This document shows positions 1 through 64,000 of a stretch of 64,000 nt of DNA, piece after piece. Position numbers and translations under genes: made by a program. The stretch is taken from positions 62,001-126,000 of the forward strand of contig OZ237737.1 in assembly GCA_965178125.1 (NCBI GenBank), in the 5' to 3' direction. Position 1 is the stretch's first letter, and the number at the start of each line of letters is the position of its first letter. The stretch is from Bilabrum cf. latius. Its lineage: Eukaryota. Below the pieces are notes generated by a model. The model was not told the DNA's origin. It ran no database searches and was given only the letters and a program-made list of their open reading frames with translations.

Positions 1-1520
1 TGCTGTCTCGAGCCGCGAACTCCCCTCGCACTGGTATGCTCCCGCCCGAGGTGGACCCGGCGCCGCCCGCTCCAGGAGCCCCGCCCGACCCCGCGGCTGC
101 GGCCGGTGGGTTCATCATCTGCTGGAATGCCGCCGCCGCCGCGCTGCCCTCTTGCGCCTGTCTCGCCGGGTCCTGCGACAGCACCAGCACGTGGCCCGCC
201 CGACCCCTGGCCTGGTCCGTGCCGACCGCGATGTCCCCGTTTGGCAGGCCAGCGATGGCCCACGGCACTCCCGGGAGTGCCACTGCCTGCAGCAGCTCCA
301 GATCCAGGGAAAATAGGCGCAAGCACCGGTCGTCCGACCCCACCGCGATCACCGCCCCGCCTGGAGCATCAGGGCGCGCGATGCAGGCCACCGCGAAGGT
401 GAACACCCCCTGCCCCGCGGCGGTGGCCTCTCGAGAGACCGCCACGCAGCCCTTGGCCGCCCCGTTCCTGGTCCACAGCCTCAGATTCCCGTCGTTGGAC
501 ACGGTGGCCAGGGCGGGTGGGCCCTTGGCCAGGCTCCCGTCGGGCCCCTTGGCCTCCTCCTCGGGCAGCTGGCTCGAAGGCAGGGCGCACACGGCACGCA
601 CAGCGAGGTCATGCTCCTCGCAGCACCGCTCCAGCACGAACCCAGCCAGCGCTGCCTCGGCCACTTTCTCCTTCCCGCTGTCCCCACCTGCCGCCCCCTC
701 TCCCCCTCCCCCCCCCCCTTGGAGCCCCTTGAGGGGGACCGGCTTCCACATGCGCAGGCACGCCCCGGCGTACCCTTGCCCTTGCTTGCGACCAGCCGCC
801 GCCGCCGCCACCCTTCCGTCCGCCAGCACCACGGCGGGCGTCCCATTGTCGCTGCCCTCGTGCCTGTGAAGCTTCTCCCCCGTCTCGAGGTCCACCACGC
901 TCCACGCGCCGTCCTGCCCGCCAGTCAGGAGCAGATCGCGGCCGGGGACGCCCCAGGCTCGCGCAGCGGATTCGGGCACCTGCTGCATGCTCATCACACC
1001 GGCGAGCATGTCCGTGTTCCGCGGGTGCACGACGATCTCGTGCTCAACCTTGAACTCGCCCGCGGGCGGACCATCACGGGGCTTGCCACTGGCAGCGCCG
1101 TCTCCCTCAGCGGCTGGTTTGGATGCACCGGCGGCTCCCAGCTCTGCTTTCGCGTCTTCCCACTTGTATATTCGCACGATTCCCCGAAGGTCCCCCGTCG
1201 CGATCCGGTTTTTGGTGAGGGGGCATACGGCGCGAACCATTGCCACGCTGCCGGGAACGGAGCCAACCATTTCAACCAAAGGCTACTCCTGCGAAGCAAC
1301 AGCCGCCCCCGCTGCCGAAGCTATTGCACCAGACGATGAGTGTTCTTGCGACTCCACAATTCTGGCTATATTGGCCATGGAATCGTCTCCACCCGAGATT
1401 AGGCCGCCACTTGGGAAAAGATCGCCTTTGCCTGGAGGAATGGACTGAAGCGCATGAACCTGCGGTGGTATTGGAACTCACATTTTGATTCTAAGCAGAT
1501 TGATCTAAACGAGAGGTCAT
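1..1520 (-). CDS. PLAA: PLAA/Doa1(Ufd3)-like WD40 protein, 5' part; runs off the left edge. Exons 1520-1482 and 1459-<1
   Basis: Manual translation (absent from the ORF track): MTSRLDQSA*NQN|VHALQSIPPGKGDLFPSGGLISGGDDSMANI...HDLAVRAVCALP...ATVSNDGNLRLWT...VGSDDRCLRLF...QAVALPGVPWAIAGLPNGDIAVGTD...VLSQDPARQA. This matches the PLAA/Doa1 WD40 region as I recall it. In-frame TAG at 1491-1493 and 1283-1285; 22-nt intron at 1460-1481. Confidence 0.75.
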
Positions 1521-1800
1521 CGATTTCGTCTACTACGCAGCAACTACACTTGCACACTCACGGCCTGCTCGTGTTCCGGCACGACAACAGAGGCAAACTT
1601 GAAGGCCAAAAACTCTTTGGTCTCTCCTTCTGCCCCTAACTTGAGCTTATCTACTGCATCACTAGATTCTGACATGAAAAGTCACGATCTGCTGGCTAGA
1701 ATGCGCGCCTTTTCGTGCTTTCGCCGACCTCAGCTTGTTGCATCCGGAGCCAGAATAATAACCACACCGACTGCATCCTTTTACAGGACGATTGACGATA

Positions 1801-3946
1801 ATGCGCCTGTTGATCCTGGCCGGATTTGCTTGCTTTGCGAATGCGCTGGCTCCAGGTTCCAAGCCTCACGTTGTAGTAATGCTAGTCGACGACTGGGGCT
1901 GGGCCAACGCCGGATGGCATCGCGAGGCTGGATTCAACGAGAGTGCCACTCCCCACATGGACGAATTGGTCAAGGAAGGGATCGAGTTGAATCATCACTA
2001 CGTTTTTAAGTTTTGTTCACCGAGTCGCTGTGCAACGCTCTCTGGCAGAAACCCTGTGAGAGATGCGATGGAGTCGCGGCGGAACTTGCGTCGCCCTAGT
2101 TGCCTGATAGCGCGTTCGAGAGCTGATCTATTTGGCAAGACCTATCGAATCTGCACTTAATTGGCTGCCGTTTGGTGACATCGGTCCATCTCCCGCAGGT
2201 CCATGTGAACACAAATAACATTGACCCGAGCTTTTGGAACCCCGCCGACCCTGTTAGCGGCTACGCTGGAATTCCGAGAAACATGAGCACTTTTGCGAAC
2301 AAGCTCCAAGAAGCAGGCTACGAAACGCATGCGTATGGCAAGGTGAGGTGCTTCTGACTGTGTAGGCCGTGCACACGAACACGCGCCTCTTCGAGAACCT
2401 GCAAACTCCAACCCCGCGATCCGAACCTATTTCACCCCCTCAACGCCCCTGACACGATGTCCCCGCAGTGGGACGTGGGGATGGCCACCCCGGAGCACGC
2501 CCCTCGCGGCCGGGGGTTCGACCAGTCTCTCATCTACTTTCACCACGCGGAGGACTGCTGGCTGCAGACCCAGGGCCAGTGCAGCAACACCCCCATGCAC
2601 GACTTTTGGCTCGAGCCAAAGGGGCAAGAGGGGCGCCCCGCGCATGCCCTCATCTCGCAGAACCAGCGCCAGTGCAAGGAACAGTCCCCTGAGGAGCCCT
2701 TTCCCGCCAACGAGACGGGATGCGTGTACACGGACGCTGCCCTCACCCAGCAGATCAGCCGGGCGGTGCTGGACAGGGACCGCAGCAAGCCCCTGCTCAT
2801 GTACTGGGCCAGCCGCATCGTGCACGGGTCCTTGCAGGTGCCGCAGGCGTACTTCGACCGCTGGGCCGGCATACCGGACGGGCCGAGGAGGACGTACACG
2901 GCCATGGTCAGCTACATCGACGAGGCCATCGGCAACGTGACGCGGCTGTTCAAGGAGCAGGGCATGTGGAACGACACCGTGTTCATCCTTTAGTCGGACA
3001 ATGGGGGCCCAGGGAATGCCAACAACTACCCGTGAGACAACCGATTCCATGCTTCGTGTTTGTTGCACCAATTGACTGCCCTCCCCACGCGAAGTGCCAC
3101 TCCCCTTGTGTCACCCCTTGTTCCTCCCGCAGCATGAGGGGAGGCAAGTTCAGTAACTGGCAGTGAGACCTCCAGTCAGTCTCGGCTGCCCCGATTTGAC
3201 CTATCTGAATCGTTGCGCGCCACTCTCGTGCATTGTTCATCTGTCCCAAGCTCGCACTCCCCGCCCCCACCGTCCACACCCCACCCACACCACGCAGGGG
3301 CGGCGTGAGAGTGAACGGCTTCGTGTCTGGCGGGGCACTGCCCCCCTCGGTGCGAGGCATCAAGACAGAGGCGCTCACCACCGCCTGGGACATCTACGGC
3401 ACCGTGTGCGACCTGGCAGGGGTTGACCCCACGGACCACCGCGCCAAGGCGGCGGGACTGCCCCCTGTGGACTCGGTCAGCTGGATGCCGCTGCTCTCGG
3501 GGGCCTCCAACGACACGGGTCGCAACCAGGTGGCTCTCGGGCACGGGTGCTACTTCTGCGGGGACTTCCACGACCTGACCACGAACGCCACGGTGGGCGG
3601 CATGGTCCGTCGCTTCGAGGACGGCAAGACGTGGAAGCTGCTCCTGGGGCAGGTGGACCAGTCGCACTGGGCCGGGCCATACACCCCCAACGGGACCGAT
3701 GTCCCCGACGATGTGGTGGACTGCGGGACGACTGGGTGCCTCTTCAATCTGGACGAGGACCCCGGGGAACACAGGGACCTCAGCAAGAAGGGCGAGCACG
3801 GGTCCGTGATCAAGCGGCTCGTTGATGACATCCGCACAGTGAACGGGACCGTCTTCAAGCCGGACCGCGGCAGCAAGTCGGACAAGGCCTGTCAGGCCGC
3901 CACGAGCGAGTACGGGGGCTTCTGGGGCCCCTTCGTGACGAGCTGA
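1801..3946 (+). CDS. Secreted arylsulfatase (ARSB-like, formylglycine-dependent). Exons 1801-2055, 2199-2342, 2469-3031, 3133-3162, 3298-3946
   Basis: Signal peptide, PHVVVMLVDDWGW, the CSPSR formylglycine motif, and GKWDVG, L*SDNGG and NYPMRGGKFSNWQGGVRV restored after splicing four GTGAG..GCAG introns. In-frame TAG at 2991; ends TGA. Confidence 0.92.
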
Positions 3947-3983
3947 GGATCAACTTGAATGCACGCCCGGTAGTCTACGGCAG

Positions 3984-4815: not shown

Positions 4816-6834
4816 TCAGTACTCGGTCAGCATGACGAGCTGCAGCGGATCCACCGTCACGTTGCACGGCACCGTAACCTCTCCCAAGCTTGTGTTGAAT
4901 GCCTCGGCAGAGAAGCCCCACGCTCGTAAGGTCCTTGGCTACCTATCGGCGAAGCTCAGCTCGGTCGTGAACGGCACCAGCCTATTCCGGTTCGTGAGTG
5001 CCACCCCCACCTTGCCCCCCGGGGTGACCCCGGCGTGCCAGGGCCCCCCTCGGCCCCCGCCTGGGGTCTCCCACGCCAGCACCCTCTGGTCCCTCCTCTC
5101 CGTGTCCTCGAGCACGTCCAGCCGCCAGCTGTCCCACGGGACCAGACGGGTGAAGGGTAGCATCGCGTTCGCGTTGAATGGATCCACCACGAACTCACCC
5201 TCCTGCAGCCCCTCGCACAGCGTGCCCGTGGCGTTGGGCCCCTTCCACAGGCTGAGTCCGTAACCCAGGCTCTCGATGTTCTGGCACGGCTTGGACGCGT
5301 GGATCCAGTAGAACGTCGGCGCGTTGGCAAACGTGAGCCAGTTCATCAGCATCTGCGCGGTGTTGATCGTAGAGAAGTTGCCATGTATCCCCCCCGGCTA
5401 GTATTCAAATTCGTTCTCAAAGACCGGCCGCCCCTGGCTCAGCTGCAGCAGCCCGCGCCCCTCGGCCCCGAACACCCGGTCCGATGACTGCCCCACAAAG
5501 TGCCACGTCCAGCCATCCACAAAGGGCAGGACCTCCGGGTCTAGCGCGATGGGCGATGCCCCCATCTGGCCCCTGGCGCTGTTGGCGTGTATGCGTGCCT
5601 GCGGGAAAGCCTTTTTGACCTTGGGCGCGACTGCCTTGAATGCGTCGTAGTACTGGCACTGCGAGTAGGAGCACGTCGAGTAAGTGGAGCCCAGGATCGG
5701 ATCACTCGATTGGCCCCTGGATTGTTCCCTGTCCATGCTCCTCCTCGCCTCCGTTCCCTGCTTGCATTGCGATGGATGCACGATGCTGGACTCGAAGTTG
5801 GGCTCGTTCTGCAGGCCCCACCACGACACGTTCAGGCCGTTCTGCCGGAGGTACTCTAGGTCCTAGACCACCGCATCCCCGAATACATCCAGGAAGGACT
5901 AGTTGAAGCCCGCCAGCGACCCCCCGATGTAGACCCCGTTGTTCTTCCAGGCCGGGGCGGGCGACCAGTACTCGACCTCGAAGCCCTCGAGCCCGCTGGC
6001 AGTCTGCATCTGCAGCAGCTCCTGCATCTGGGTCGGCCACCTCCCCACGACGTGCTCCCTGGAGGGGTCTAGTCCCCTCAGGAAGAGTCCCAGGGCCAGC
6101 CTGCACCACCTGAACCCCTTGGTGATCTGCTCGAAGAAACGGGCCTTCTCGGGGCCGGTCAGGTCGTGTGGGACTGAGGATGTGCTGTTGGGCAGTCCGC
6201 GGTTGTCGCTGCCGATCGAATCGGACTGGATCTCGTACCCAAACCCCTCGATGCGCTGCCTGCGGCCGGCAGCCGAGGCGTCCACCACGAAGCGGCCGCT
6301 CGAAGGAGGTATGTTGCCCCAGGCCAGGCACAGCGCGGAGTCGCTGGACGACGGACTTGCAGGGCGTATCGTGCTATCGGTTAGGTTCAGCTACCAATCC
6401 TGATGGCCTTTGGCGTAGAGTCCGCCGGTCTGGCAGCCCGACAACGTAGCTATCGCACCAACGTCAAGGCTGGTCACGGTGAGGCACTGCGAGCCGTCTC
6501 CGTACTTGAGCATGGTACCATCCCACGCCCAATGACCGAGAGATTTCTCCTTAGACCACGCGATCGAGTGCAGCACGACAGAATCAATGCCGGCTCCATC
6601 TTGAGCCAGACACACGGTGCCTGATGATTTGCCAACCACACCTTGAATGGAGCATTGGCTGTCCGAACCCGTTGTAAAATGCCCGCCCTATTGCAGCGAT
6701 GAGACAGATGGCCCAGGCAAGTGCGCACAGTCTGCTAGAAATGCCGGTTCCAGCGATGACGCGGCGGCCGTACTGCAGCTAACGGCTGCGAGGGCGGAGG
6801 CTGCGCACACTAGAGCGCTGCGGCTCCTCATCAT
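4816..6834 (-). CDS. Secreted GH30-like glycoside hydrolase with an N-terminal ricin-B-like lectin domain
   Basis: Signal peptide; ricin-like QCLTV...GC...HQDW*L; QRIEGFG, WSPAPAWKNN, WGLQNEP (acid/base Glu) and FENEFEY (nucleophile-like Glu). One frame through TAGs at 6688, 6391, 5899, 5863, 5398 and 4939; ends TGA at 4816-4818. Confidence 0.78.
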
Positions 6835-7040: not shown

Positions 7041-7985
7041 TCACTGCACGAACTTTGCCATGAACCGCCTGTGGAAATCGTTCCTCACAGTGTCGTTGAT
7101 GAACCGCTTGCCCGGGTGCGTCGCGGCGCCCCTCATCTGGTTGCGAAACACAACGTCCTCGTCCCAGCGAGGCTGCCGGCCCCCCGCCGATGAGGAGGGC
7201 GAGGAGGAGGAGGCAGCCTGCGATGATGATCCGGTCGTGGCGCCCGTGGCTGCTGCCCCTGCCCCCATCCCCGCGCCGAAGCTGCCGGCCAGCAGCGGGT
7301 TGCTCGACGCAGCCGCCATTTCCTCCTCTCTCGCCCTGCGCGCCTTGTCGGCTTCCTCCTGCAGCCGCTGCTTGGCTGCCTTCTCGGCCCGCAGCTTGGC
7401 TAGCTCCCGCCGGAGGGCCTCTTCGTCGTCGCTGTCGCTGTCAGATTCAGAGTCGTCGCTGTCGCTTTCATACCGCATAGCCTATCCATTGCCAGCCGCG
7501 GCCTTGGCTCTCGCTGGAGGCTACCGGAATTCCACGTCCGCGTCGTCGAATCGGCGAACGATGCCTAGCTCGGCGGGTGACAAAGACACGCTGGTACTGG
7601 CTGCCAGCGCTGATACCCTTTCCTTGCTGGGGGGCTCTCCCCTTACGAGCGCCCTAGTCCAAGGTGCTGCTCCAAAATCTCGCTCTGCTGCTGGTGCACT
7701 TGCCCTTGCTTGGCGTGATTGTCCCTCAAGCTTGCCTGGCTGTGGTAAGGAAGGCAGCATCGCTGCGGCACCCGAGCCTGCATGCGCCTCTCGCTATAAC
7801 AGCTGCTATTTCAACTCTTCTCGTGAAAGTCGAGAGGTGGTATCGGTGTCCGTGCGGACTTTCATCGTGAGCTGTCCGGGAGGCGCTCTTGAGCTCAAGA
7901 GTGGGCCACCAAACTGCCCTCTACCCTCGCTCAGTACTGAAGCAGACCCATTTCCACGCTTTGCTTTGTCTTGAGCAAGATGCAT
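7041..7985 (-). CDS. CWC15: Spliceosome-associated protein Cwc15/Cwf15
   Basis: C-terminal RWDEDVVFRNQ...RFINDTVRNDFHRRFM and DDEEALRRELAKLRAE. The N-terminal SSRAPPGQLTMKVR...REELK segment is recovered only by reading through TAGs at 7806, 7794, 7521 and 7482; ends TGA. Confidence 0.88.
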
Positions 7986-8229: not shown

Positions 8230-8232
<3 letters not shown>

Positions 8233-8300: not shown

Positions 8301-9916
8301 TCACTTGACGGCCAGCTGCCCCTTAAACGCTTCATACGCGGAGTTCATGATGCCCCACCCGGCCGCAGACCGCCCGAAGTTCAGCGCAGCACCCCTGTAC
8401 AGCCCCCGGAGCCCCCTCCTCTGCACGAGGGCGCGGATGGCACCCGCGGGAGACAGGAAGGGGAGCGGGGCTCCTGCGCGGATAGGCACCTGCGCCTGCA
8501 CCCACGCCTTGGCAGTGGCCAGCGGGAGCAGGGCGGTAGAGATGCTAGCCCCGAGGAGCCCTCCCCCGGCGAAGTCGCAGGCCCAACCCGGCGCCCAAGG
8601 AGCCCCCTGCGCCACCGCGCCCCGGGCTCTGTCCCTCAGCCCGAAGAACAGCGCATTCGAGAGAACGTTCCTCGTGGCGATGATCTGCCACCCGCGGTAC
8701 AGCTCCAGACCCCCTTTGGACCGCAGCAGCCAGGCAGCCACGGCCAGGGTGCCCCCCCCGCGGGGAGGAACCACCCCGTGCCCCTGCCCGTGGTGGGGCC
8801 TACGCCACCCGCGCCCCACACCCCAGAGGGCAAGCCTGCCGGCCGGCGCATGATTCGCGGCCGTGCTGGACGTGCCTCGGTAGCTCCCAGCATGCATCGC
8901 AGCGCCAGCTCCAGCCCCTGTGCCAGTGCCTGCCGCCACCGAGCACACGTGGCTGGCTCGCGCCATCACTGGGGCTGCGGCCCACGGCCTCGTCCTAGTC
9001 CTGGCCCTGGCCCGACCCCTGCGGCCCTGCGAGCCGGAAAGGCCCTTTGAAGACATGCTGCTTCCTAGAGGAGGCATGGTCCCGGTGTTTGGCGCCGGGG
9101 CGGCCCTGGGCCCCCCCGCCGCCACCCCAAAGGTGCCCGATTTGGAAGCGAGGATGCTCTGGACCCGCTCGAAGGGAGCCAGGGTGCTCTCCAGGAGGCC
9201 GCTGCCCGTTGCAGCGAACAGCGCAACGGACGGAGATGTGCTTGCTAGTCCGGTTGCCTCGGATGCCCTTCGTCTCAGAGTTTCGTTGGCTCCAAACATG
9301 ACAGACACCTGCAAGGATCGCTGCATCAGGGGAGGTGAAACCCCCATCCAAAGCTCTCCAACGCCTTCCTTCGCCAACTGGGCCATCTGTCGTGATACTG
9401 TTGTGCCTTCTGCCTGCAAAATATAATAATAAAACAAAATGAAAGCTGATTTATGGGACAAAAGGTGCATGGCGGCATACCTGGGCTCGAAACATTCGGT
9501 GTAGCCAAGTGCAACTGCGGTGATCAACGGGCGATCTTGTGGCTTTCACCGGCCGCTAAAACTGCAATCACGGTCAAAATTCCAAGATAGTACAACATCT
9601 ACCATAAAATACTGATATGTCATAGTATGTGAGCCCTCTATCCACGATATGAGTCAAAATAAAATCTGGCGGCCTACCAACGTGACAGACGCGCTGTCTA
9701 CGTGGCACGTCGCACCCACGCCTGCACATAACTCACCTGAGCGCGAAATACAGTCTTGAAAGCTGGATATGTTAAAATTATATTCGTAGCACTCGCTAAG
9801 AATCCAGCAACACCCTCTGTGGAGGGAGCATAGTGCGCTGAAGATGCCAGCCGGCCGAATAGTGAGGTTGCTTGGTCGTGTTCATGCTTGCACACGCCAT
9901 TTCGGACGTGCGCCAT
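8301..9916 (-). CDS. Mitochondrial carrier, SLC25A51/52 (MCART1)-like. Exons 9916-9737 and 9413-8301
   Basis: YPAFKTVFRAQ|AEG, PPLMQRSLQVSVMFG, PFERVQSIL, YRG..I..RNVLSNALFFGLR, DFAGGGLLGA and LYRGAALNFGRSAAGWGIMNSAYE closely follow SLC25A51 as I recall it. Intron 9414-9736; ends TGA. Confidence 0.82.
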
Positions 9917-10159: not shown

Positions 10160-11581
10160 TTAGCTGCCAGATTCACCGCCACACACGATCTCCACATGTA
10201 CCCTGGGCGCCTCACACGGCAGCACGCTCACTGGGGCGGCCCGTCTCACCATGTCGGCCGCACTCATGCGCTGGAGCTCCACCACATCCACCCAGCCCGT
10301 AGGGAGCGCCCCAGATGCATCCGAACCATTGCGCAGCCCACACACAGCTGAGCCACCCAGGGGTATTCCCCAGAGACCCCTTGGCAAGTCACCCCCGCCG
10401 CGGGGATCGAGCACAGGGACCAGCACAGAGCACCTGTACGTCGCATCGATGGCCGCCCGCTGGCCCGGCCTCCACCCCCCCCTTAGTGGGGGGGCATCAC
10501 ACTCCGGGTCCACGAGTGCAAACGGCGTGCATGCCTCCAGGTCGAGCCGCACGCCCGCCACCAGCGCGATCGAGGGCGCATCGGCACATCCGCCCGGGCC
10601 AGCCGGCGGGCCGTCCTATCTGCCGCTGGATGCTGCTACAGATCGAGCCTTCGCTGGGGCCTCCTCCTACTCCTACTCCTCGGGCTCAGTCGATGACGCA
10701 ATCTCCGCCCCAGAGGCCGCGCCGCCCTCGTCCTCGTCCTCGCCCTCGTCCTCGTCCTCGTCCTCGCCCTCGTCCTCGTCCTCGCGCGGTGGCTGTGCCA
10801 GGCCGACGCCCAGGCACACCGACACGCGGACCGGGTGCCCCCCCGCCGCTGCTGGCACCAGCATCCAACCGCGGTCCCTCAGCACCTCCTGCTCACTCAG
10901 CCCCTGCACCGCATCCAGAGAGGCCCCTCCCGCCCTGGTGCGCCCGCAGCACGAGAGGGCCTCGAGTGCGGCAGACACGTCGGACCAGTGCACCGCGCTG
11001 GGGGCTGGGGCCTTGTCTGCAGGCGCGGCGGCTTCCTAGGGTATTTCGTGGCTGCATAGTGTAGATCGGATCTGGCAGGCAAGCAGGGCAACTAGCCCGC
11101 CGATCCTCGCCTCTGATCCGTTCAACACCGTGCCGTCCACTGCGAGGCTGTCTCTCTCGAAGTCCCGCTGCACCTGGTCGCAAGTCTCATCCACTTTGCC
11201 ACCGTACTAGCTCACTACGGATCGATCTATCGCGATGCCCCAAGGAATTCTTGGGCCGGTGACCCCGCCAGGCTCTGCTAGCCGCACCAATGTCTCTAGG
11301 CGTCCGCAGGCCCTGGCCGCAGCAAGGAGGCCTGTATCCGATGTAGCAGTTGCGGGCTCGCTGCCTGCCGTAAACGACACATTGTATCCACGAGTGACCC
11401 GGTCAGCATACGCTTGAAAGTCCTTTCGCGTGGGAGACTGCGCCATTGCCTGCCTCTCTCGCAGCTCACCAGCAATATCGTGTTGCTCCATTTTGTCAAC
11501 ATGAATAATCCCGCCCAGAAGTCTGCACAAAAGATGAATTGTCATTCTTGAATACGCATCGCTCCATTCATTCAAATCCAT
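10160..11581 (-). CDS. Hypothetical protein (~470 aa) with an acidic tract
   Basis: ORFs 11207-11581, 10673-10993 and 10160-10561 share one frame joined by TAGs at 11207, 11036, 10673, 10667 and 10616; ends TAA. No family recognised. Confidence 0.6.
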
Positions 11582-14700: not shown

Positions 14701-15507
14701 TTGGGCGAGGCATCCTGGGGGCCTGCCTTGGCCTTGCCGGATGCCTCCAGGAGGGAGCCGGAGTGGCAGTCCCTGGCGCGGATGAGCTGGGACAGGCCAC
14801 CAAGTGTGACGAGTGCGATGGGGCTCTAGGTAGAGGAGGAGGGTGAAGATGCATTCCGATGGGAGGAGGCAGACGGTCTCTCCTCTGCCTCGATCCCATC
14901 GGCGGGGGCCTGGGCAGAGGCTCGCCTGCATCCCGCTGCGGAAGCATCCACCTGCCTGCCTGCCTCGTTTGCGTAGGAACTCGCGGCGAGTGACCGGCCC
15001 TTCGCCATCCAAGGCGAGCAAGATGACAGAGATAGAGATAGGGCCAGGGGCAGCGACAGGTCGCCCCGGCTGCAGAGCGTCACCATGCTGGTGCGGGCAC
15101 TGCCCACCCGGCTCCCCCTTGCGCTGAGAGCCGCCTTTCCCTCCCATCGGCTTGAGGCCCGGGACCTGCAGCAGGGGGTCGCTCTCCGCATGCTACAGGG
15201 GGCGGTGCCTCTGCTGTGCAGCACGGAGACGGCCGTGCGGAGGGTGCAATGGGAGGGGCCCGAGCATGTGGCCGCTGCAGGGAGGTGGCTGTCCTTCGTG
15301 CTGGGGGCCGAGAAGGAGAGGCACAAGAGGGAGTCCAGGGCGGAGAGGAGCGCGGACATGGTCTAGAGGGCACAGCGGGCGGTGGACAAGAGGAGGGGTC
15401 GCGGCAGGGGCAGTAGATAGAAGGCAACGAGCGCGGGGAAGTAGACACGCGGGAGAGACGAAGAGGAGCAGGAGGATGCGGCAGAGGACGGGTTGGGGAG
15501 GCGGTGA
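11701..15507 (+). CDS. tRNA pseudouridine synthase, TruA/PUS1 family, with a long C-terminal extension. Exons 11701-11938 and 12035-15507
   Basis: VAYDGTRYSG, SRTDRLVHA (catalytic Asp), RSYDYFVP, VHNFT and GAGFLLHQIRHTIG. Eleven in-frame TAGs (11749, 11779, 12322, 12670, 13069, 14158, 14827, 14974, 15364, 15418, 15442); first TGA at 15505. Confidence 0.8.
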
Positions 15508-15610: not shown

Positions 15611-15694
15611 CCATGGTTTCACACTAGCACGAACTGCGCCTGGACCTCGACCCCATGGTTTCACACTTGCACGAACTGCGCCTGGACCTCGACC
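15611..15694. repeat. 42-bp direct tandem duplication with one mismatch
   Basis: ccatggtttcacact(a/t)gcacgaactgcgcctggacctcgacc at 15611-15652 and 15653-15694. Confidence 0.92.
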
Positions 15695-28340: not shown

Positions 28341-28486
28341 GTGGGTCATGTTCTAGAAATATGGCCGCTAGGTGTTGTCTCGGACTGCATAGTGTGACAC
28401 GTGTGAGGCAACTGCCGCAGCAAACCCGGAATCGGCGACCTAAATCCACCGACGTGGCGCCCACACTGATTCCTTTTGAACCCCCC

Positions 28487-52700: not shown

Positions 52701-55337
52701 CACGGTTCACCTCGCGTGTGGCGGTGGCGATGGACGCAGGTGCCAGCGAATTCTCGGCTGGTACAGGATGCGGGCGCACCTGGCGTGGACCAGGCCACTC
52801 CTGCAAACAGGCTGGACGGGTCGTTGGCGCCCATGAACGAGCCTGCTCTTGGCTCTGAAACGGCTGCACTGGGCTCAGAGGGAGTGTTCTCCGAGTCCAT
52901 GACTGCCACAGCCGTGCTGGATGTGGCGGGCGTGTACGTGGCAAGGGTGTCTGCGTCCGACGGCTGCTACGTGAGCGAGGCAGACGCAGTGGTGGTGGTA
53001 GGCGCACAGATGCCAATGCTGTTTGCAGGGACAAACTACCATTTCTCGCTCGCGGGAGGGCTCGGTTACATTCTCTGGAAGACCAAGTACCTCGACCTGC
53101 GGGGGCAGATCGTCGGCACACCGGCCCAGGCTAGGAGCCTCGACGACTTCGGGCTGTCAGTGCAGTGGACCGTGGAGTCCCAGCCGGTCGGCATTGAGCC
53201 CGCCCCACTGGCTGAACTGTTCCCGAATGGCGCCGATGTGCTGTCACCGCGGTTCTTCCCGCTCGCAGCAGGCACCTACGTCCTGAAGATCACAACCACC
53301 GAATCGCCGCAGCTCACTGGGGGCTCTGGTTCAGCGCCGCAGGCTGCGGTTCGGTCTGAGACGGTTCGTGTGTTTGTCGCCTGCGGGCAGTCCCCGCAGG
53401 TCGTAATTGCTGCCGATGACGACGACGGGAGGGTGAGTGCTGGGTCCGTGTCTGCTCCACTGACCTCTGGATTTGGCGACGACGATTTCGATGAGGCAGA
53501 GAGGGGCACGGGGCTTACCTCGGGCGTGTGGGCTCTCGGCGGGACCGTGGGTCTGGATGCCGCCTCGGGAACCACGGACCCTGACTCGCCACCAGCCGCG
53601 CTCTCTTACACCTGGCGGCTCGTTGACAACCCAAGCTTGCCGCGCGTGCGGAGGCCTGGCACCGCCGCCATGGGCTTCTCTCGCGCCGCTGTGCTGCAGC
53701 CGGCACAGCCCACGCAATTGGATTCAAGCAGCGCACTGCAGACTGGTCCATCTCGTGGGCTGGCTAACATGGTGCCGGACGGCATTGGCACCTACGAGGC
53801 CAGGGTCACCGTGTCGGACGGCTGCAGTCAGCCGTCCCAGGGCTCCTTCCGAGTCGAGGTTGTGTGTCCCGCGGGACCGTCTGCGGCGGCAACTGCGGTG
53901 GAGCCGATCCTGCTGCAGCCCGGGGCGGACAGCATGCCCGAGTCTGTGACTTTGCAGGGAATCGCGTCTCTCGGAGTGGCTGACGAGTCTGAAGCGCCCT
54001 CGCAGTTCAGGCGCATCTCCTCTGCGTGGTCTGTTGTGAAAGTCCCGCCGGGTGCGCCCACCCCCGCCCCTCTCCCGGGAGCACCGCCGACCATCGCACG
54101 GGGGTCCCAATCGACCGTGTTCTTTGCGCCGGGGTCAAGCGCGGTGTTTTCTCCCGATCGTGTCGGAACGTACGTGTTCCGGTTCCACGTAACCGACGGG
54201 TGTTCAGTGGCGGAAGATGACTTGATCGTGACGATTGCATACACGGATACGTGCAGCAGCAGCGGGAGCGGCAGCGGGGGCGGGAGCGGCAGCGGGGGCG
54301 GCGGCGGCGGTGGTGGCGGTGGGCAATGCCCGCCTCAGGTGGTGGTTGTGCGAGACAGCAGCGTGGCAGTGGTGGAATTTGACACTCTGCTGGAGGGCAT
54401 GGACTCGGCTGCCTTCTCCTCCTCGCAGGCCCTGCAGCTGGCCTTCAGGGAAATCGTCGCATCGATCGCGGGTGAGGGCCTTCCCGAGGGAGAGCGGTCC
54501 TCCATGTCGGCGAGCAACGTTACCATCGACTCGATCGGTCCTGGATCGCAGGCGGGAGGCGGCGCTCGACGCCTGCAGGCAGACTAGGGCACCGCAGTGC
54601 AGTACTCCGTGGCCCTGGAGGGCACTGCTGCGGATTCTGAAGTTACCGAGACGGTGGCTGGCGCCGTGGAGGCCGGCACGGCGTCTGGGAGCCTGGCAGC
54701 GCGGATCAACGCGGATGCTAGCTTCGTGCAGGCGGGCGTGACGACCACTGGTGCGTCGCTGCAGTCGGCGCCCAAGACCGCAGTGGTCCGAAATGTGGTC
54801 ACCACGACTGAGACTAGCCAAGGCGGTGAGAGCGACGGGTGGACCGACGGTGAGTTTTGGGCCGCGGCTTCCATCTGCATCATTTTGGGTTGCGTGCTGG
54901 TCGCAGGAGTGGCGTTTGTCGTGGTCTCGCGTTGCAGGCAAGACGGCACTAAGGAGGGAGCGGGAGAGGGAGCGATGGGGCACGGCCCGGGGTGGGGCGG
55001 GTCAACCGGTGGGCCTGAGCCTCTCCCCATCGCCAGCACCAGTGGCAGGCATGCACGGGGGCAGTAGGGGACAGGTCCTGACAGCGACAGTGACGCGAAG
55101 AGCAGGCTCACCTTCGAGTCTCCCATTGGGGTGGGGGCTCGATTGAGGCAGCTGGGGAGTGGTGCTTCCTCGCCGTCGACGCAGCAGACGGCGACGCAGC
55201 GGCACGCTCAGCTGCAGTCGAGCATGAGAGGTGCCAGCCGGCAACAAGGGGGCCAAAGCGAGCAGCAGCTCAATCCTCTGCAGCGCGCCAGGTCTGGGGC
55301 TGCCACTGGCAGTGGATTCTCTGGCTAGGTTGCGTGA
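37724..55337 (+). CDS. Giant (~5,800 aa) single-pass surface protein: Fn3-associated-like domain, ~28-30 PKD/KIAA0319-like Ig repeats, an endostatin/DUF1554-like domain and a C-terminal TM. Exons 37724-38459 and 38602-55337
   Basis: A 16.7-kb exon holds 26 of the gene's 27 in-frame TAGs and no TAA or TGA until 55335. Recurring W...GxYxxxxxxxDGC...VxVxC..PxA units; TM FWAAASICIILGCVLVAGVAFVVV near 54855-54930. Start uncertain (37724 or 38069). Confidence 0.8.
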
Positions 55338-55814
55338 TGCCGCGGCGCGGAGCCTGTCCTGCGCTAATTGAACATTAAAAACTTGCTACTTGCTGCTACT
55401 TGGACGTGTTTACCATGCCAATCCCTCATGTGTGATTCAAATTACACGCAATGCAGGCTAAGAAGTCTAGAGTCTACTGGTCAGTGGTCACCACAGAGTC
55501 ACCACATCACCAGAATGCCTAGATCTGCTTCAACCGGAAGAATATATCTCACACAGCAAGCAAGCAAGCAAGAAAATCTTGCTTCTCGAGCAATCATTAT
55601 ACTCGGAATGACCCAAACCCTAATACCTCCCTGTCCCACCAGACCTGTGTCCCACGACCTGCTCCGGCGCCGCGCGCCCGAGAGCGGAGCACAGCTGTCG
55701 CGGAACCCCCCACGAAAAGAAGGAGCATGCAGTATCCGCCATACGTCTTTCTAAGTCGCGTAGTAATCCACTGAAAAAATGCCAGTCATCAGTACTAGTC
55801 AAAGGTGTATACAT

Positions 55815-58800
55815 ATGCTTGCAGCAACTCTCGTAAGCACAATTCTGGTTCTGGTGCTCGATACACGCGCCGATGATTGGTGCTCGATGCACTCTATCAA
55901 GATGCAGAAAGGTATAGCCGCCACACCCGGTTAGTATCCAGTATGTGCCATAGATGCAATTACCAGCGAGGCTGTTTGTATGAGACTGGGGCAGAAAGGA
56001 CTAGCCTATGACGTCGCGCTGCCAGATGAGACTGGGTACGTAGCCATCGCCCTCGGATAGCGAACTGATGCTTGTTTAATTCGCGGGGACTCTCTACAGA
56101 TGGAATGCTATGGCACAACTCCGCCCTCTTCTCCATATTATGGATACATGGTGCCTCCGAGCAGCGTGTCTGGTTGGCTCTCGGTTTCGATGGGCAAAGA
56201 CTACTCGTGTGGAATTGCTGCGAGCGATCGATCCATGCACTGCTTCGGTGATGCTGACGACATCGTGCTAGATACAGATGGTACCGTATCAGCGTGGTCG
56301 TCAGTGTCCCAACGCGACGAGAGCTACGTGACCGGCATAGCCGCATCGCCGGCGGGCTCGTTTCATGCCTGGGCTAGCGATACCTTCAAGTTGCAACAGA
56401 TGCAATCCAGCGAGTTCTACAATGCAATGCAAAGAGTTCAGCGGTGGCAAATAGTCGAGTAGGCTACGGGAATCGGGTGCGGCATTGATGCCGCCAACGG
56501 CTCGCTACACTGTTGGGAACCAAACAATCCGGACGCAGGTAGACTGCTCCGCTGGGAGCAACTCCCGACAAATGTCTCCGGCTGGAGAGACCTGTCGGTT
56601 GCAAGCAGCGTGCTGTGTGCGATAAGCGCGGACGATGGTGCGATGTACTGTACAGGGCGGGTTCTCCCAACCATGCAGAGGGGGGAGCCGTTCATGCCTG
56701 GAACATCCTTTGCAGCTGTCACCATATCAATTGGGAGTTCAACAAGTTGGTGCGGCATCGAGGAGTTAACCGAAGTCGTTCGGTGCTATCGCGCTACCTC
56801 TGAGGGCATTGAACAAGAAACGGTCCTTCCGGGTTTCAGAGCCATACCATACCCGGTGCACTGCATGCCGCCAGCGTTCGACCCCAGCAGTGTCAGGGCA
56901 GATAGCAACGCAACGTACCTCAGTCTGGTGAATGCCACCGATCTTGTTCTTTGGGAGAGGCCGAGTGGATCTGTGCTTGAGGGTTGGACCGACCTGCGCC
57001 GAGTGGATCTGCCGAGCTCCTTGCAGTCTCTGTCGAGCGGCGCGTTCATGGGAGCCCCCAAGCTGGGAGCTATCGACCTGTCGAGGTGCTCGCGTTTGCA
57101 CACACTGCCAAGGCATGCGCTCGGCACGACCGCCAACACGCTCAACCTAACGCTCTTGCCCCACGGTCTGTCGACCATAGAGAGCGAGGCATTCCTGTCT
57201 CCCAACGGGTCGGCCAGCACCGACCTTCGTCCATTCGACTTCCCTCCCAACCTGACTACCATCGAGGAAGGGTCTTTCCGCGGGCTGTGGGAGGCTACGG
57301 TTTTCAACCTTTCGCACACCAGGATACAGGTGCTGCCAACTGGGGCATTCGACGGGCTGTCGTCGGTGAAGACCTTGTCCTTGCCGGATTCCGTGCACAC
57401 GATCGAAGCAGGTGCGTTCAGATAGCTGGGGCAGCTCTCTGTCCTGGACCTGTCAAGCACCAGGGTGGCACGACTCGTCTCCGGTGCGCTCGAAGGGCTT
57501 GCTGCACTAACAGCGATAAAGCTGCCAGCCACTTTGGTATCGATTGAGAAGGATGCGTTTGGGTCCATGCCCCTGGTAACTCGACTAGACCTGCGCGAGA
57601 CGCAGGTGTCCGAGCTGCCCACAGGTGCCCTTGCCGGGCTATCTGGGCTGACTGTGATGCACCTGCCGGTAGGCATTCAGCTTATTCGGTCGCGTTCTCT
57701 TCCGCGCGCGCCAAATATTCGCCAACTTAGGCTAAACCAGACACAGTTGCACGAGCTAGAGCCTAACGCGCTCCACGGATTGGACCAGCTTGTCTCCATC
57801 GACCTTCCTGCCAGTCTGACAACCATACACAGAGCGGCATTCAACGGGACACCGGAGCTCGTATCTCTTGACTTATAGCACATCAACATTACTCGCCTTC
57901 GCGCCGGGGCCTTGACTGGCCTGAACAAGCTTGCGACTCTGTTGGTACCACCGGGCCTGTCCACCATCCAGAGAGGCTCGCTACCCGAGGACAACCGAGC
58001 CCTCACTCAGCTCAACCTCAGCATGACACAGGTCGCGGTACTGGAGGAACGCGTCCTTGAGGGCCTCAAGGAGCTCAGCATACTTGACCTGCCCATGGGT
58101 CTACAGGTTTTGGAGCCCCGCGTGTTCCCCGACCATTCGATGATTGCAAGACTGGACCTGACAAGGACCAACGTGGGCGTGCTGCAGACTGATGCGCTGC
58201 GAGGACTGACGCGTTTGGAGCAAATCAAGCTGGCACCACGCCTCAGTCGCATATAGCCACGGGCGTTTCCGAATGCGTCCGGCCTGTCAGCTCTGGATCT
58301 AAGCCAGACCAACCTGTCAGTCCTGCAAGCCAGTGCTCTCCAAGGCCTAGATTCGCTTGCGCAGGTGGACTTGCCTGCCTCGCTAAACACCATCCAAGCC
58401 AACGCATTCCACATGCCGTCCAACTCAATTACTTCGCTGGATCTCTCATCGACCGCTATCACAGAGCTCGGCAGCGGGGCGCTGGACGGGCTGTCAGGCA
58501 TGACGAGCCTGACGATGCCCTCCTCGCTCAGGCACCTGCGACGAGGAGCACTGAGAGGATGCACCGATGGCGGTTTCATTGCTCTGGACTTGTCCGGTAC
58601 CCAGCTGCAGACCCTTGAAGAAGGATCGACGGTCGGGGCGCAGCATTTGGAAACCATTCTGGTGCCACCGTCGCTGCACGAGATCCAAGCAGGTGCGTTG
58701 GCAGGGTCACCGAGTCTGTAGACAATCAGTGGACTCCAGGATTCTGGGCTGGAGGTGCTCGTCACGGATGCACTGGCCGGTCTGCATAGCTTGCAGCAGC

Positions 58801-61800
58801 TGAGCTACCCAGCATCACTACAAACCATCGAAGCAGGCGCCTTCCCGATGCCGTCTGCCTTGGAGACCGTCGATCTGTCCGGCACGAACGTGAGCGTGCT
58901 GCAGACGGACGCTCTCCGTGGCTTGGATGGCCTCACGGGTATGGACGTTCCCCGGGTACTTCAGGAGATCGAGCCACGGGCGTTTCCGAATGCGTCCGGC
59001 CTGTCAGCTCTGGATCTCAGCCAGACCAACCTGTCAGTCCTGCAAGCCAGTGCTCTCCAAGGCCTAGATTCGCTTGCGCAAGTGGACTTGCCTGCCTCGC
59101 TGAACACCATCCAAGCCAACGCATTCCACATGCCGTCCAACTCAATTACTTCGCTAGATCTCTCATCGACCGCTATCACAGAGCTCGGCAGCGGGGCGCT
59201 GGACGGGCTGTCAGGCATGACGAGCCTGACGATGCCCTCCTCGCTCAGGCACCTGCGACGAGGAGCACTGAGAGGATGCACCGATGGCGGTTTCATTGCT
59301 CTGGACTTGTCCGGTACCCAGCTGCAGACCCTTGAAGAAGGATCGACGGTCGGGGCGCAGCATTTGGAAACCATTCTGCTGCCACCGTCGCTGCACGAGA
59401 TCCAAGCAGGTGCGTTGGCAGGGTCACCGAGTCTGTAGACAATCAGTGGACTCCAGGATTCTGGGCTGGAGGTGCTCGTCACGGATGCACTGGCCGGTCT
59501 GCACAACCTGCAACAGCTGAGCTACCCAGCATCACTACAAACCATCGAAGCAGGCGCCTTCCCGATGCCGTCTGCCTTGGAGACCGTCGATCTGTCCGGC
59601 ACGAACGTGAGCGTGCTGCAGACAGACGCTCTCCGTGGCTTGGATGGCCTCACGGACATGGACGTTCCTCGGGTACTTCAGGAGATCGAGCCACGGGCGT
59701 TTCCGAATGCGTCCGGCCTGTCAGCTCTGGATCTCAGCCATACATACATCCGGGATCTCTCAGCAGGCTCGCTGCATGGGCTATCTGGCCTTGGTCTTGG
59801 AGAAGTCATCCCACAGTGCAGTGGATGCCTTAAGCTACCAATGACGCTTGAGCGGATCCATGCCGAGTCATTTCCGAGGCAAGCCACGGGTGTCACGGAG
59901 CTCGACCTGTCCCTTACCAAGGTGACCGAGCTTGTGCAGGGTGCCCTTGACGGGCTCAAGAGCCTTACTGACCTCTCGCTGCCCACCGAGCTATCCCACC
60001 TGCGAGGTGGCGCCCTTCGCGACTGCAGGCGCTTGAATCCCCTCAACTTGTCCCATACGAGGATATAGGAGCTCGAGCCGCGTGCCATGCAGGGGCAGAA
60101 CGTCAAGACGTGCACCTACCCAAAGGGGCTTATTTCCATCGCTCCTGGTGCGTTCATCGGCGCAGTCTCGTAGGATTCCGTGTCTCTTGCATTTACTAGC
60201 TTAAAGCGACTACAGGCAGGCGCGTTTGATGGATTGCGGGGCATCAAGAAGCTGGACCTGCCGGCCAGTCTCAACTCCATAGAGAGGGGCGCCTTCCGCG
60301 GTATGGACCAGCTCTACTCGGAGGAAGCACCAGCAGGAGTAGCGAGATGGTCGCACTTAGGAGTAAAAGCGCTCGTGACGGGGGCACTGGAGGGTCTTGA
60401 TGGGATGCGCACGTTACGGCTGCCGACTGTGCTGGAGACGATTGAGACGAATGCATTCGCGAATGCGACGAGCATTGAGTCCGTGGACCTCGAAAAGACT
60501 CAGATCGAGGTGCTGGCGAAAGGTGCGCTGCGTGGACTGGACTCTGTGTCCTCGATTCAGGTCCCTGACACCCTGCGTGTCATTGATGGGGGCAGTTTGG
60601 AAGGGTTAAGTAAAATTGCAAGCCTCGACATGTCCTCTACGGGCGTTCAAGTGCTAGCTGAGGGAGCGCTTGACGGGCTTGGTGCTCTCGAGACGCTCAC
60701 ATTTCCGATGGGGCTGCGAGAGATCCAGGGCGGGGCATTCCGGCAGGCAAAGAGAGTGCAAACGGTTGACCTCCGAAACACTCGGCTAGAGATTCTCCGA
60801 AGCGGGGCTCTTGACGGGGCGAGCGCCGTGGCCACTTTGAATCTTCCGGGCACGCTGCGAGAGGTGGAGGGCGGCTGCTTCGGGACTGGCCTCGTCTAGA
60901 CGGTAGACTTGCTGGAGACGTAGATATCAACCTTGCCCACGGGGGCATTCGAAGGGGTGCAAGAGCTCACCAGCGTCACGGTTCCGAGGCGTCTAACCTC
61001 TATTGAGCCTGATGCGTTTCGCGGCTGCGAACAGGTCACATAGCTGGACCTTCGCCCGGCCTCTCGGCTGGAATCTCTCGAACCAGGCGCACTGCGCGGA
61101 TTGACCGGTCTGATATCGCTCCAGGTACCACCTTCACTGGCCCACATCCAACCTGGGTCGCTTCCTGCAGCACCCGGCGTGCGATCTATAGACCTACGGG
61201 ACACAAATGTCACGTAGCTTCGGCAAGGTGCTCTGCAGGGCCTGACCGGATTGACCGACAGCGGTCCTGGTGCACCCCCGTCACTGGGCCTCCCGCGTGT
61301 CCTGGCATCATTGGACGCAGGGGCGCTGGGGCACATGCCGAAGCTGGAACTGCTGGATTTGTCGACCACCAGGCTCCAATCGCTTCAAACGGGCGGGCTT
61401 GCAGGTATCCCATCTGTAGCAGAGGTTAGGGTTCCGGATGGGATAAATACAATCGAGGCTGGAGCTTTTGAGGGCTGCGATGGCCTGGAAGACTTGAACC
61501 TGCATTCGACAGCAGTGAGCACTCTGGTTACCGGGGCGTTTGACGGACTGGCAAGCAGTGCTCGGCGAGTGGTGTTGCCGGATGCGCTCGACACAATAGA
61601 GGCAGGCGCATTCAGGCATCTGCATCGGCAGGAGCGCATGGACTTGTCGAGCACGCGTGTGGAGCGTCTGGTCAAAGGTGCCTTGCTTGGGCTGAAGAAC
61701 AGCACCGAGCTCTTGCTTCCTGCTAGTCTTGCGACTATAGAGGCAGGTGCACTCAACGACAGCGGGCGCACAGAGACCCTAGACCTCTCCGAGACTCAGG

Positions 61801-64000
61801 TGACATCGCTGGCACCCGGATCGTTGGGGGGTGCTGTTGTCGGGCTTAACGGCAGAGGTAAACTATTGCTGCCATCTGCTGTGACACGTTTGTAGTCAGG
61901 TGTGTTTGAGACGTTCTAGCCTGACGACTACTTCGAGATTGAAGCCCCCGGTTTGGAGGAGCTCGAGCTTGGCTGCTTTGAAGGAATGGTCACAACTTCC
62001 TCGTTCTCTCTCCGACTGGAAACACCGGTCCTGGGCTCCATCCCTGCCCGTGTCTTTGCCGCTCTGGGCGGCATGCGAGACCTATCGATACGGGCTGCTG
62101 CAGGCGCATCCTTCGGCCGCCTAGACCAGCCGTGCAGCGCGTTTGAAGGACTATCGGGCCTGCGAGAGCTCGGCGTCGATGCACCAGGGGCCGCTAACGT
62201 GTTCGGCGCACAGCAACGCCTGACTGAAGACGGCTTCAAAAGCTGCTCCTTTGGCCCCACGCTACGCCAGCTTGCCTTGAACGGCCTTGATCTTTCCCGA
62301 TCCATCTGGAGCCGCGGGACATTTGCAGCGCTGCCCAGCCTGCACCGCCTGGCCGTGACTGGCTCCTCTGGACAGCGATCCTTCTCCATTGGCGGCGATG
62401 TCCTCACGCCACTTTCACTGCTCGAAGAGCTTGACGTTTCGCGGAGCGGGCTGTAGATGCTGCCGGTACTCACTCGCTCAGCGGGTGGCGTGCTTCGGTC
62501 CATCAACGTGCAGGGCAACCCGCTAGACGTCGTGGTGGACAACCCATTCGCCAACATGTTTCAGCTCATGGACGTGCTCACAGATCCTGGTAAGCAGTGC
62601 AACCAAGGAACTGTTAAGCAGCCAGTGACTGTTCTGAACGGGGACGACCCTGCCATGTGCGTCATGTGTCCGGCAGGCCATTACTGCGCGGATGGCATTG
62701 TCCGCACCGAGTGCCCGCTGGGGAGCTTCAACCCGACTCGCATGGCTCCCAACGCGACTGCATGTCAAGATTGCCCTGTTGGCAGCGTGACTACATTTAC
62801 AGCGGCCGTGTCCAGCGACCAGTGTGTGGCAGTGCCGCTCAGGTGCAACCCGGGCACTGCCGGCCAGGACTGTGAACCATGCGGACCTGGCACGTACTCG
62901 CTAGGAGGAGACATTAAGGAATGCCTGGTGTGCCAAGCAGGGACAGTGTCACAGCGAGAGTACCTGTCGCTCGGATGCGACGAGTGTCCTCAGGGCACGT
63001 ATGGATCCAGGGCGAGGCAAGCTCTGGTCAGCAGCTGCATGCAGTGCGGAGATGGGCTTCGGTCGGACAGCGGGGCCACAGCGTGCTCTGGGTGCCCAGC
63101 GGGACAGCTCCTCGACTCCAGCTCGGGGCAATGTATCTTGCAGGCTGACGAGCCCAGGTGTGGAGCGGATGGCATGGCCTGTCTGCCAGGCGTGCCAGAG
63201 CCGGTCGTGGCCCCAGCCGTCGTGCGCTAGCTCGTAGCGGAGCTGCCGCTGCCCTCGTTCGTGCAGGCGGGGTTCGATTCAAGCAGCTCTAACGCCCTCT
63301 TTGGTGGATTTGAGGAGCCTGTCCCCGCTGACGCAGCGGTGGGCCCGCAGGGCGACGAGTCGCTTGCTCGAATTCTGAGACGCGCATCAGAGCGGATGGA
63401 CTATCAAGACAGCGCAGCAGCTCGAGAGGCTGGCTACGGTACACCAGTAGAGCAACCGAGCCATCCAATGCGCATTGGACGGGACTCTCAGCCGTCAATT
63501 TCCTCTAGTAGGAGGCAGTTGCAGGACAACGGCGAGTCTGGCGGCGATATAGATGCCGGCAAGGACGAGAAGAGCGATACGGCTGCTGCTGAGCAGATAG
63601 CCTGGGTTGTGAGCACTTGTTTCATTGGAGCTCTGGCGCTGATTCTACTGATACCACCTGCCCGTGCCCCGATGCACAGCTTCCTCAAGCTGATCGATTC
63701 GATGTCAATGGACCATTCCCCAGAGCAATTTGCAGCCATGAGGAGAATTAGCACGCCCACGGGTGGGTGGTTTACTGTGGCTGCCATCCTTGTGGCCTTG
63801 GCTTCGTCGGCTAACCTGGTTCTGTAGTATGCGTACAGCAACAGTATCAGCAACGCGGGACTGCAAGTTGCTGCCACCGGTGTAGAGGGAGCCGACAGGG
63901 CGGCAGCAGCACGCTCCAGCATGGTGCTGGACCTGGTGCTGCAGCCGGCATCGTTCGTGAGGTGTGATGATAGCGTTTCGCTGCAAGTGTCTTCTGGGAG
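55815..64000 (+). CDS. Large membrane protein with signal peptide, RCC1/BLIP-like repeats, a long BspA-type LRR array, Cys-rich (GCC2/TNFR-like) repeats and TM segments; 3' partial
   Basis: MLAATLVSTILVLVLDTRA; CGI...HCFG repeats; LPxSLxTIExGAF and LDLSxTxxxxL units; CPAGHYC, CPLGSFN and CPQGTYG; TMs near 63600 and 63770. Nineteen in-frame TAGs; open at the window end. Confidence 0.82.
58257..59739 (+). repeat. Near-identical 717-bp (239-codon) tandem duplication within the LRR gene: two full copies and the start of a third
   Basis: ccacgggcgtttccgaatgcg recurs at 58257, 58974 and 59691, and the copies differ by only scattered substitutions. Confidence 0.93.

Follow-up and report, generated by a model that had tools for sequence, protein, structure and literature searches.

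Reassignment of stop codons in nuclear genomes has nearly always changed UAA and UAG together, and cases in which UAG alone took a new meaning are few, those described in the cited parts of three accounts being Iotanema, the rhizarian exLh, Scotinosphaera and some ciliates (PMC5304391, PMC8271138, PMC11687900). The cited part of PMC5304391 reports that UAG encodes glutamine in the fornicate Iotanema spirale while UAA and UGA are stops, argues for a tRNA with anticodon CUA as the basis of UAG-only decoding, and gives leucine for UAG in exLh. Furthermore, PMC11687900 describes, in the part cited, UAG-only changes to glutamine or leucine in the ciliates Protocruzia tuzeti and phyllopharyngeans, and it lists the joint reading of UAA and UAG (UAR) as glutamine (NCBI table 6) for many ciliates, some Ulvophyceae, hexamitids, Streblomastix and Amoeboaphelidium; the cited part of PMC8271138 describes UAG as serine, with UAA kept as a stop, in the ulvophycean Scotinosphaera. 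In this study, a 64-kb stretch of contig OZ237737.1 (positions 62,001 to 126,000; hereafter the window) was analyzed. The window has a GC content of 63%, carries eukaryotic genes and is nuclear DNA of a GC-rich, intron-poor eukaryote. We consider it highly probable that UAG alone is a sense codon in these genes, most likely for glutamine, and that UAA and UGA are the sole terminators, as in NCBI table 15. An earlier note made from the letters of this DNA had proposed that UAG is sense and that UAA and UGA are stops, and this proposal held; the precedents that it named were a fornicate, a rhizarian and some ciliates, and Scotinosphaera, with UAG as serine, and several ciliates described in the cited parts of PMC8271138 and PMC11687900, respectively, were missing from its list.

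The gene models were built from ATG starts and RNA-supported introns, which gave 15 models, 13 of them complete. In-frame counts over these models were 102 TAG, 0 TAA and 0 TGA, with TAG present in 14 of the 15. When 14 frames were delimited by TAA and TGA alone, 101 TAG stood in frame with neither TAA nor TGA, while the same stretches held 124 TAG, 38 TAA and 324 TGA in their +1 frames and 96 TAG, 42 TAA and 311 TGA in their +2 frames. TAG occurred in frame as often as in the shifted frames, whereas both other triplets were fully excluded in frame, a pattern that marks a reassigned stop and not pseudogenes. The figure of 101 TAGs in the earlier note agrees with these counts; its spread over 15 of 16 genes does not, as 15 genes were found and the mitochondrial carrier gene contains no in-frame TAG. 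Moreover, with the standard stops the window contained 40 frames of at least 300 codons, the longest of 1,097 codons, and with TAG as sense it contained 57, the longest of 5,759, 2,744 and 2,699 codons. Because the off-frame rate of TAA and TGA together is about 1.8 per 100 codons, a frame of 5,713 codons free of both, such as that of the giant gene described below, is not due to chance. The chosen reading frames also had a higher GC content at the third codon position (GC3) than at the second (GC2). TAG made up about 0.56% of codons; counted as a glutamine codon, it would have a share of about 13% among them, and inside genuine, expressed frames it is as dense as a rare but ordinary codon.

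Pfam domains flanked TAGs on both sides within a single frame. In the ABC half-transporter gene (28361..31387, forward strand; 1,009 codons, TGA end), five TAGs were found at 28559, 28589, 28661, 29183 and 30362 (here and below, single positions are those of the first base of each in-frame TAG), and the ABC_membrane and ABC_tran matches lay in one frame on either side of the last of them, where the earlier note had placed a TAG in the linker between the transmembrane and nucleotide-binding domains. In the sulfatase gene, a TAG in an L*SDNGG motif had likewise been noted, and it was located at 2991-2993 in the context VFIL-TAG-SDNGG. The sense reading of UAG is thus supported by the frame statistics, by domains that continue across TAGs and by spliced, RNA-derived contigs that keep them, as follows.

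Contigs of four sequencing runs from four studies (X1, X5, X6 and X7) were compared with window positions 1-20000. Seven GT..AG introns of 98-323 nucleotides, each in the orientation of its gene, were skipped by contigs of X5 and X6, which belong to two studies other than that of the best-matching DNA run, whereas contigs of X1 and X7 did not skip them; the skipping indicates spliced transcripts in X5 and X6. Among the intron-crossing contigs were one that joined 15667-17295 to 17394 and one that joined 728-1457 to 1560. The listed pieces covered 14 TAGs in X5 and 7 in X6 with no other letter at any of them, and two sulfatase contigs (977 and 1,001 nucleotides) spanned the TAG-bearing exon 2467-3031 by length arithmetic. 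Since spliced contigs keep TAG, UAG is neither edited nor spliced out. Over positions 1-20000, the contigs of the four runs differed from the window by one base (11785, X6) and two one-base indels (after 707 in X1; 8915 in X6), none at a TAG, and no other letter was found at any TAG. The difference at 11785 was a T for C in one X6 contig, and that at 707 an extra C in one X1 contig (depth 14.3 of 30.5); both are minor strain or assembly differences. The explanation that the TAGs are untranslated, because they are errors of assembly, lie in pseudogenes or are lost from the RNA by editing or splicing, is hardly credible in view of this agreement across four studies, the spliced contigs, the in-frame contrast of 102 TAG with no TAA or TGA, and the sharing of TAG sites by relatives. 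The earlier note had named CAG at these sites and removal of UAG from transcripts as possible contrary findings, and neither was seen in the region compared. Beyond that region, the sequence 28000-37500 was present in runs of several studies under different organism labels, and runs X9-X16 contained only small shares (0.06-0.12). None of the runs matching the stretch was recorded as RNA.

The second part of the finding concerns the two remaining stops. Among the 13 complete genes, 11 ended at TGA and two at TAA; the earlier note had counted 12 and two, and was right that no complete gene ends at TAG. UGA is a terminator, being absent in frame against 324 and 311 off-frame occurrences and closing 11 of the 13 genes. 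As for UAA, the most obvious competing code is table 6, in which UAA and UAG are both glutamine and UAA would merely be rare in a GC-rich genome. That code is the commonest nuclear variant according to the cited part of PMC5304391, and a GC3 bias would lower the use of TAA. The bias can be gauged from the ordinary glutamine codons, as a CAA:CAG ratio of 126:544 in 17,902 codons predicts about 23 in-frame TAA under joint reassignment; none was seen in the window (P ~1e-10, a figure that is partly circular since the frames were chosen TAA-free). In-frame TAA at a similar rate elsewhere in the genome had been named in the earlier note as a further possible contrary finding. Moreover, treating TAA as sense lengthened no long frame (42 frames of at least 300 codons, the longest unchanged at 1,097). 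The two TAA ends are followed by sequence that does not look like coding sequence or that runs into the next gene: the gene at 10160..11581 has 179 in-frame codons past its TAA, with a GC3 of 0.46, which overlap the first exon of the next gene, and the ADCK1 gene has 59 codons past its TAA with a GC content at the first codon position (GC1) of 0.37. The sequence beyond both TAA ends is non-coding-like in composition, and TAA is not co-reassigned with TAG. Table 6 thus retains only a very slight probability, and UAG appears as the only reassigned stop.

The same trait was found in relatives at two distances. A close relative is represented in the databases by proteins 98% identical to the window in ADCK1 (P0121) and 89-93% identical in the giant PKD-repeat protein (P0241-P0243, three recovered fragments). 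P0121 ends exactly ahead of the window TAG at 33729, P0243 ends exactly ahead of another window TAG site and P0242 begins just past one; these gene calls, made with the standard code, thus break off or set in at window TAG sites, and the close relative therefore shares the trait. The three fragments span five window TAG sites, where the residues of the relative are Q, N, Q, E and G. A more distant relative is represented by an ABC transporter (P0268) of 67-71% identity, in which three window TAG sites are occupied by Q (CAA), E (GAG) and M, and the metagenome contig L002 of this relative contains two in-frame TAGs of its own. Two relatives, at 90-98% and about 70% identity, thus also have in-frame TAG, and the trait belongs to a clade. 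The GC content of the ~70% relative (L001, L002) was 55-56% against 63% in the window, and the trait is thus not tied to very high GC.

Regarding the amino acid, glutamine is the most likely meaning of UAG and glutamate the second, as judged from aligned columns. The clearest column was that of one TAG of L002, which stands in the nucleotide-binding domain at the 'VQxAL' position after Walker B, where 266 of 280 aligned domains (149 proteins) have Q and three have E; the window codon at this position (ABC transporter residue 919) is CAG. In the GH30-like hydrolase, the residues of 120 homologs at site 479 were Q 53, L 52 and E 0 (n=116 for log-odds), and 10 of the 12 closest homologs had Q; Q was also commonest (33) at site 324, while site 312 had P 68, A 21 and Q 10, and site 632 was mixed. 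A background-corrected log-odds sum over 14 homolog and repeat columns gave Q a lead of 7.6 nats over E and of 18.6 nats over S, and a BLOSUM62 conditional likelihood over the eight relative residues placed Q ahead of E by 2.5 nats. The internal repeat profiles of the leucine-rich-repeat (LRR) and PKD proteins gave weak polar columns only; the Cwc15 TAG sites, which pair with E and R of Schizosaccharomyces pombe in a PDB alignment, and the GH31 TAG sites, which lie outside the aligned parts of the PDB matches, were uninformative. Two further residues were considered and rejected. Serine stood 18.6 nats below glutamine as stated, was found at none of the eight relative residues and was frequent in one LRR column (18/29). 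Leucine was allowed only by GH30 site 479 (52/116) and was outside the eight best residues of the log-odds.

Several observations count against the code as we read it. The decisive glutamine column is that of the relative's gene, and its use assumes that TAG has the same meaning in both organisms; within the window, most TAGs are at poorly conserved positions and none is on a hyperconserved or invariant column. Relatives span eight window TAG sites with the residues Q, N, Q, E, G, Q, E and M, only three of which are Q. At the other TAG of L002 the aligned residues vary (E 46, A 16, D 13, K 12, S 10 and Q 9 of 128), and the window codon is GAC. In addition, the raw emissions of entropy-weighted hidden Markov models, summed over 15 weak columns, placed E ahead of Q by 5.0 nats, so that glutamine leads only after background correction; this lead of E was attributed to its being the commoner residue in weak columns, and because of it glutamate was kept as a live rival. 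UAG would then be sense but glutamate, as in the ciliate PL0344 (UAG) or in Blastocrithidia and peritrichs (UAR). Such a meaning is supported, apart from the raw emissions, by E at two of the eight relative residues, by two LRR repeat columns with E 16 against Q 7 of 33, by E as the commonest residue in the column of the relative's first TAG, and by the single base that separates TAG from GAG. It is opposed by the relative's second TAG in the VQxAL column, by the absence of E at GH30 site 479 and by both the corrected log-odds and the pairwise likelihood, and we regard glutamate as improbable and glutamine as the better reading. As to transcription, the run labels read 'RNA? (probably DNA)' for X5 and 'RNA?' for X6, and the RNA origin is drawn from the intron-skipping contigs alone. 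As to termination, only 13 gene ends are in view, leaving room for occasional UAG termination. A dual UAG that is sense within genes but also closes some of them, as in Condylostoma or karyorelict ciliates, would suit this small number of ends and the TAG that stands two codons ahead of the TGA of the PKD gene; TAG ends none of the 13 complete genes, and the dedicated stops UGA and UAA remain, so that context-dependent termination is not needed, and such a code is given a low probability. Finally, ARAGORN found no tRNA gene within the 64-kb window, no Rfam match was obtained in the window, and eRF1 is not among its genes.

A mechanism for a code in which UAG is glutamine and UAA still terminates may be proposed. 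Because UAG is sense while UAA terminates, the decoder would have to pair with UAG only, which points to a tRNA-Gln with the anticodon CUA, whose C at position 34 would pair with UAG and not with UAA. Moreover, eRF1 would no longer recognize UAG efficiently, or would compete poorly at it, and new TAG codons may have arisen mainly from CAG by a C-to-T change.

The first 20 kb of the window contain the genes covered by the contig comparison. A WD40 gene on the reverse strand (2..1692; exons 1560-1692 and 2-1457) runs off the window and has one TAG, at 1285; its intron 1458-1559 was absent from X5 and X6 contigs, in which the TAG was covered with no other letter. The name PLAA that the earlier note gave it has weak support, PLAA/Doa1-like being suggested by Pfam WD40 matches and a PDB match to DOA1 (E 9.6e-5). 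The sulfatase gene (1801..3946, forward strand; exons 1786-2055, 2199-2340, 2467-3031, 3133-3162 and 3298-3946) has 547 codons, the one TAG and a TGA end. Pfam Sulfatase and Sulfatase_C were matched, the spliced sequence was a single open frame with a signal peptide, and all four GT..AG introns were skipped by X5 and X6 contigs. Opposite to it lies the GH30-like O-glycosyl hydrolase gene (4816..6834, reverse strand; 673 codons, TGA end), which had 281 homologs at E up to 0.001 and contains six TAGs (6690, 6393, 5901, 5865, 5400 and 4941), all spanned by the X5 piece 3298-6849 with no other letter. This single contig runs from the last sulfatase exon through the entire GH30 gene, and the convergent transcripts of the two genes abut or overlap at their 3' ends. 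The closest named homologs of the hydrolase were bacterial (Dactylosporangium, Streptomyces and Acidobacteria), with a few eukaryote matches as well (Stephanoeca and Picozoa), and inter-domain transfer of this family is possible.

Further along on the reverse strand are the gene of the Cwc15 splicing factor (7041..7985; 315 codons, TGA end), with TAGs at 7808, 7796, 7523 and 7484, a Pfam Cwf_Cwc_15 match (E 2.5e-40) that bears out the earlier label and further matches to the CWC15 chains of PDB spliceosomes, and that of a mitochondrial carrier (8301..9916; exons 9736-9916 and 8301-9412; TGA end), with a Pfam Mito_carr match and a 323-nucleotide intron skipped by X5 and X6 contigs. Four genes of the window gave no family match. 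One, at 10160..11581 (reverse strand; 474 codons, five TAGs, TAA end), was called from its open frame and codon bias. Another, at 12166..15507 (forward strand; 1,114 codons, nine TAGs, TGA end), was called from its open frame, and two of its TAGs were covered, unchanged, by the X5 piece 12417-14086; it may be the gene that the earlier note called PUS1-like, a label that searches of Pfam (E up to 5) and of PDB sequences did not support. A Cys-rich gene (15661..17283, reverse strand; 541 codons, three TAGs, TGA end) has an intron upstream at 17296-17393, and its three TAGs were covered by the spliced X5 contig 15667-17295 plus 17394, and by X6 pieces alike, with no other letter. The fourth is a large gene (17647..25722, reverse strand; 2,692 codons, nine TAGs, TGA end), of which the X5 piece 17614-20000 covered two TAGs. 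Acidic low-complexity coding repeats lie within it at 18244-18620 and 19508-19567, where many false joints and loose ends of other contigs occurred in all runs.

The remainder of the window is occupied by forward-strand genes. A voltage-gated-type (Kv-type) ion channel gene (25917..28340; 808 codons, three TAGs, TGA end; Pfam Ion_trans, E 3e-43) precedes the ABC half-transporter gene, which is followed by the gene of an ADCK1-type ABC1 kinase (31521..33818; 766 codons, three TAGs, TAA end; Pfam ABC1, E 1.5e-75) and by that of a GH31 alpha-glucosidase with trefoil domains, called from Pfam (34008..37211; 1,068 codons, three TAGs, TGA end), with PDB matches to acid alpha-glucosidase and maltase-glucoamylase. 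The giant PKD-repeat surface protein (38199..55337) comprises 5,713 codons in a gene with no intron, 31 TAGs, the first five of which lie in an uncertain N-terminal part, and a TGA end; Pfam K319L-like_PKD and PKD were matched, and about 30 internal repeats were found. At 55326-55337 its reading frame closes with a TAG two codons before the TGA stop. The last gene (55779..63998) encodes a giant LRR protein, described as a surface protein, of 2,740 codons that runs off the window, with 19 TAGs, Pfam LRR_8 and LRR_5 matches and 36 aligned internal repeat units. At 58293-59726 on the same strand, about 239 of its residues are repeated almost identically in tandem (843-1081 and 1082-1320), and the TAG is present in both copies (58719 and 59436); the duplication is thus younger than the TAG.

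The phylogenetic position of the lineage was approached through ADCK1. The best named matches were chlorophyte green algae. In an IQ-TREE analysis of this one gene (39 rows), the query, on a long branch (0.87), and its 98% relative fell in an 11-row clade (support 100/99) outside the Viridiplantae clade (100/99), with brown-algal sequences elsewhere than in the query clade. A link to green algae (Scotinosphaera/Ulvophyceae) was dropped, since the tree sets the query outside Viridiplantae. The 90% cluster of one member of the query's clade contains proteins of Cafeteria roenbergensis and Cafeteria burkhardae, and a position near bicosoecid stramenopiles is a lead rather than a placement. Besides Cafeteria, the only name met near this clade was Symbiodinium sp. 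KB8, a label carried by two ADCK1 records (P0253 and P0428); the best GH30 and ABC matches gave no informative names. One of the two records shares its 90% cluster with Cafeteria proteins and the other with query-clade sequences, and the Symbiodinium sp. KB8 assembly probably contains heterotroph contaminants. No ciliate was among the named best matches of the ADCK1 and GH30 searches. Ciliate macronuclear genomes are AT-rich and have very short introns, and the fornicate-type anaerobes are without ordinary mitochondria. Introns of 98-323 nucleotides and 63% GC argue against a ciliate, and the presence of a mitochondrial carrier gene and an ADCK1 gene speaks against a fornicate, both arguments drawing in part on these general features of the two groups; the earlier description of the organism as non-ciliate is consistent with the GT..AG introns, the GC content and the single ADCK1 tree.

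A full-text literature search, with subscription journals and supplements outside its reach, found no report of a UAG-only code for a stramenopile or for any GC-rich non-ciliate lineage beyond the known cases. The code variant is real and of a type already known, and the lineage is probably unreported. It is quite possible, although we would stop a little short of calling it probable, that the window represents an independent and unreported origin of a UAG-only-to-glutamine nuclear code in a deep-branching lineage that is neither ciliate nor green, possibly a heterotrophic stramenopile near bicosoecids, with at least three members at ~70-98% protein identity and 55-63% GC. An independent origin would add one more data point on the frequency and route by which UAG is released from termination, and would supply a clade for dating and comparing changes in tRNA(CUA) and eRF1. 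The genome and transcript data of the lineage are already public, so that, if this is true, the uncoupling of UAG from UAA is directly testable through tRNA(CUA) and eRF1. Three properties make the case useful: the nuclear DNA is GC-rich and has conventional introns, there are long genes free of introns, and the trait is shared by relatives at two distances. In practice, gene calling with the standard code splits genes at every TAG, as in the truncated database proteins P0121 and P0241-P0243, and as a result the public proteome is fragmented and such sequences can sit unrecognized in the data sets of other organisms.

In conclusion, the window can be set beside the described systems as far as the cited parts of their accounts extend. 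Like the table 6 lineages, it gives UAG the new meaning of glutamine, but UAA is a stop in the window. The UAG-only ciliates share with it the uncoupling of UAG from UAA, with glutamine as the outcome in several lines; compared with ciliates, the window has 63% GC and introns of 98-323 nucleotides with GTGAG..CAG ends. Scotinosphaera is likewise a non-ciliate with a UAG-only change, while serine was rejected for the window, which falls outside Viridiplantae in the ADCK1 tree. The rhizarian exLh also has a UAG-only change and, as an uncultured protist, was first seen as a contaminant in data of other organisms, but its leucine fits the window at one column only (GH30 site 479, L 52/116). The closest likeness in code is to Iotanema, in which UAG alone became glutamine and UAA was kept as a stop, a tRNA(CUA) being proposed for both. 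Iotanema is a fornicate, a group described as anaerobic in the cited part of PMC9161772, whereas the window has a mitochondrial carrier gene, an ADCK1 kinase gene, 63% GC and an ADCK1 clade that includes Cafeteria, and the two code changes appear to be of independent origin.

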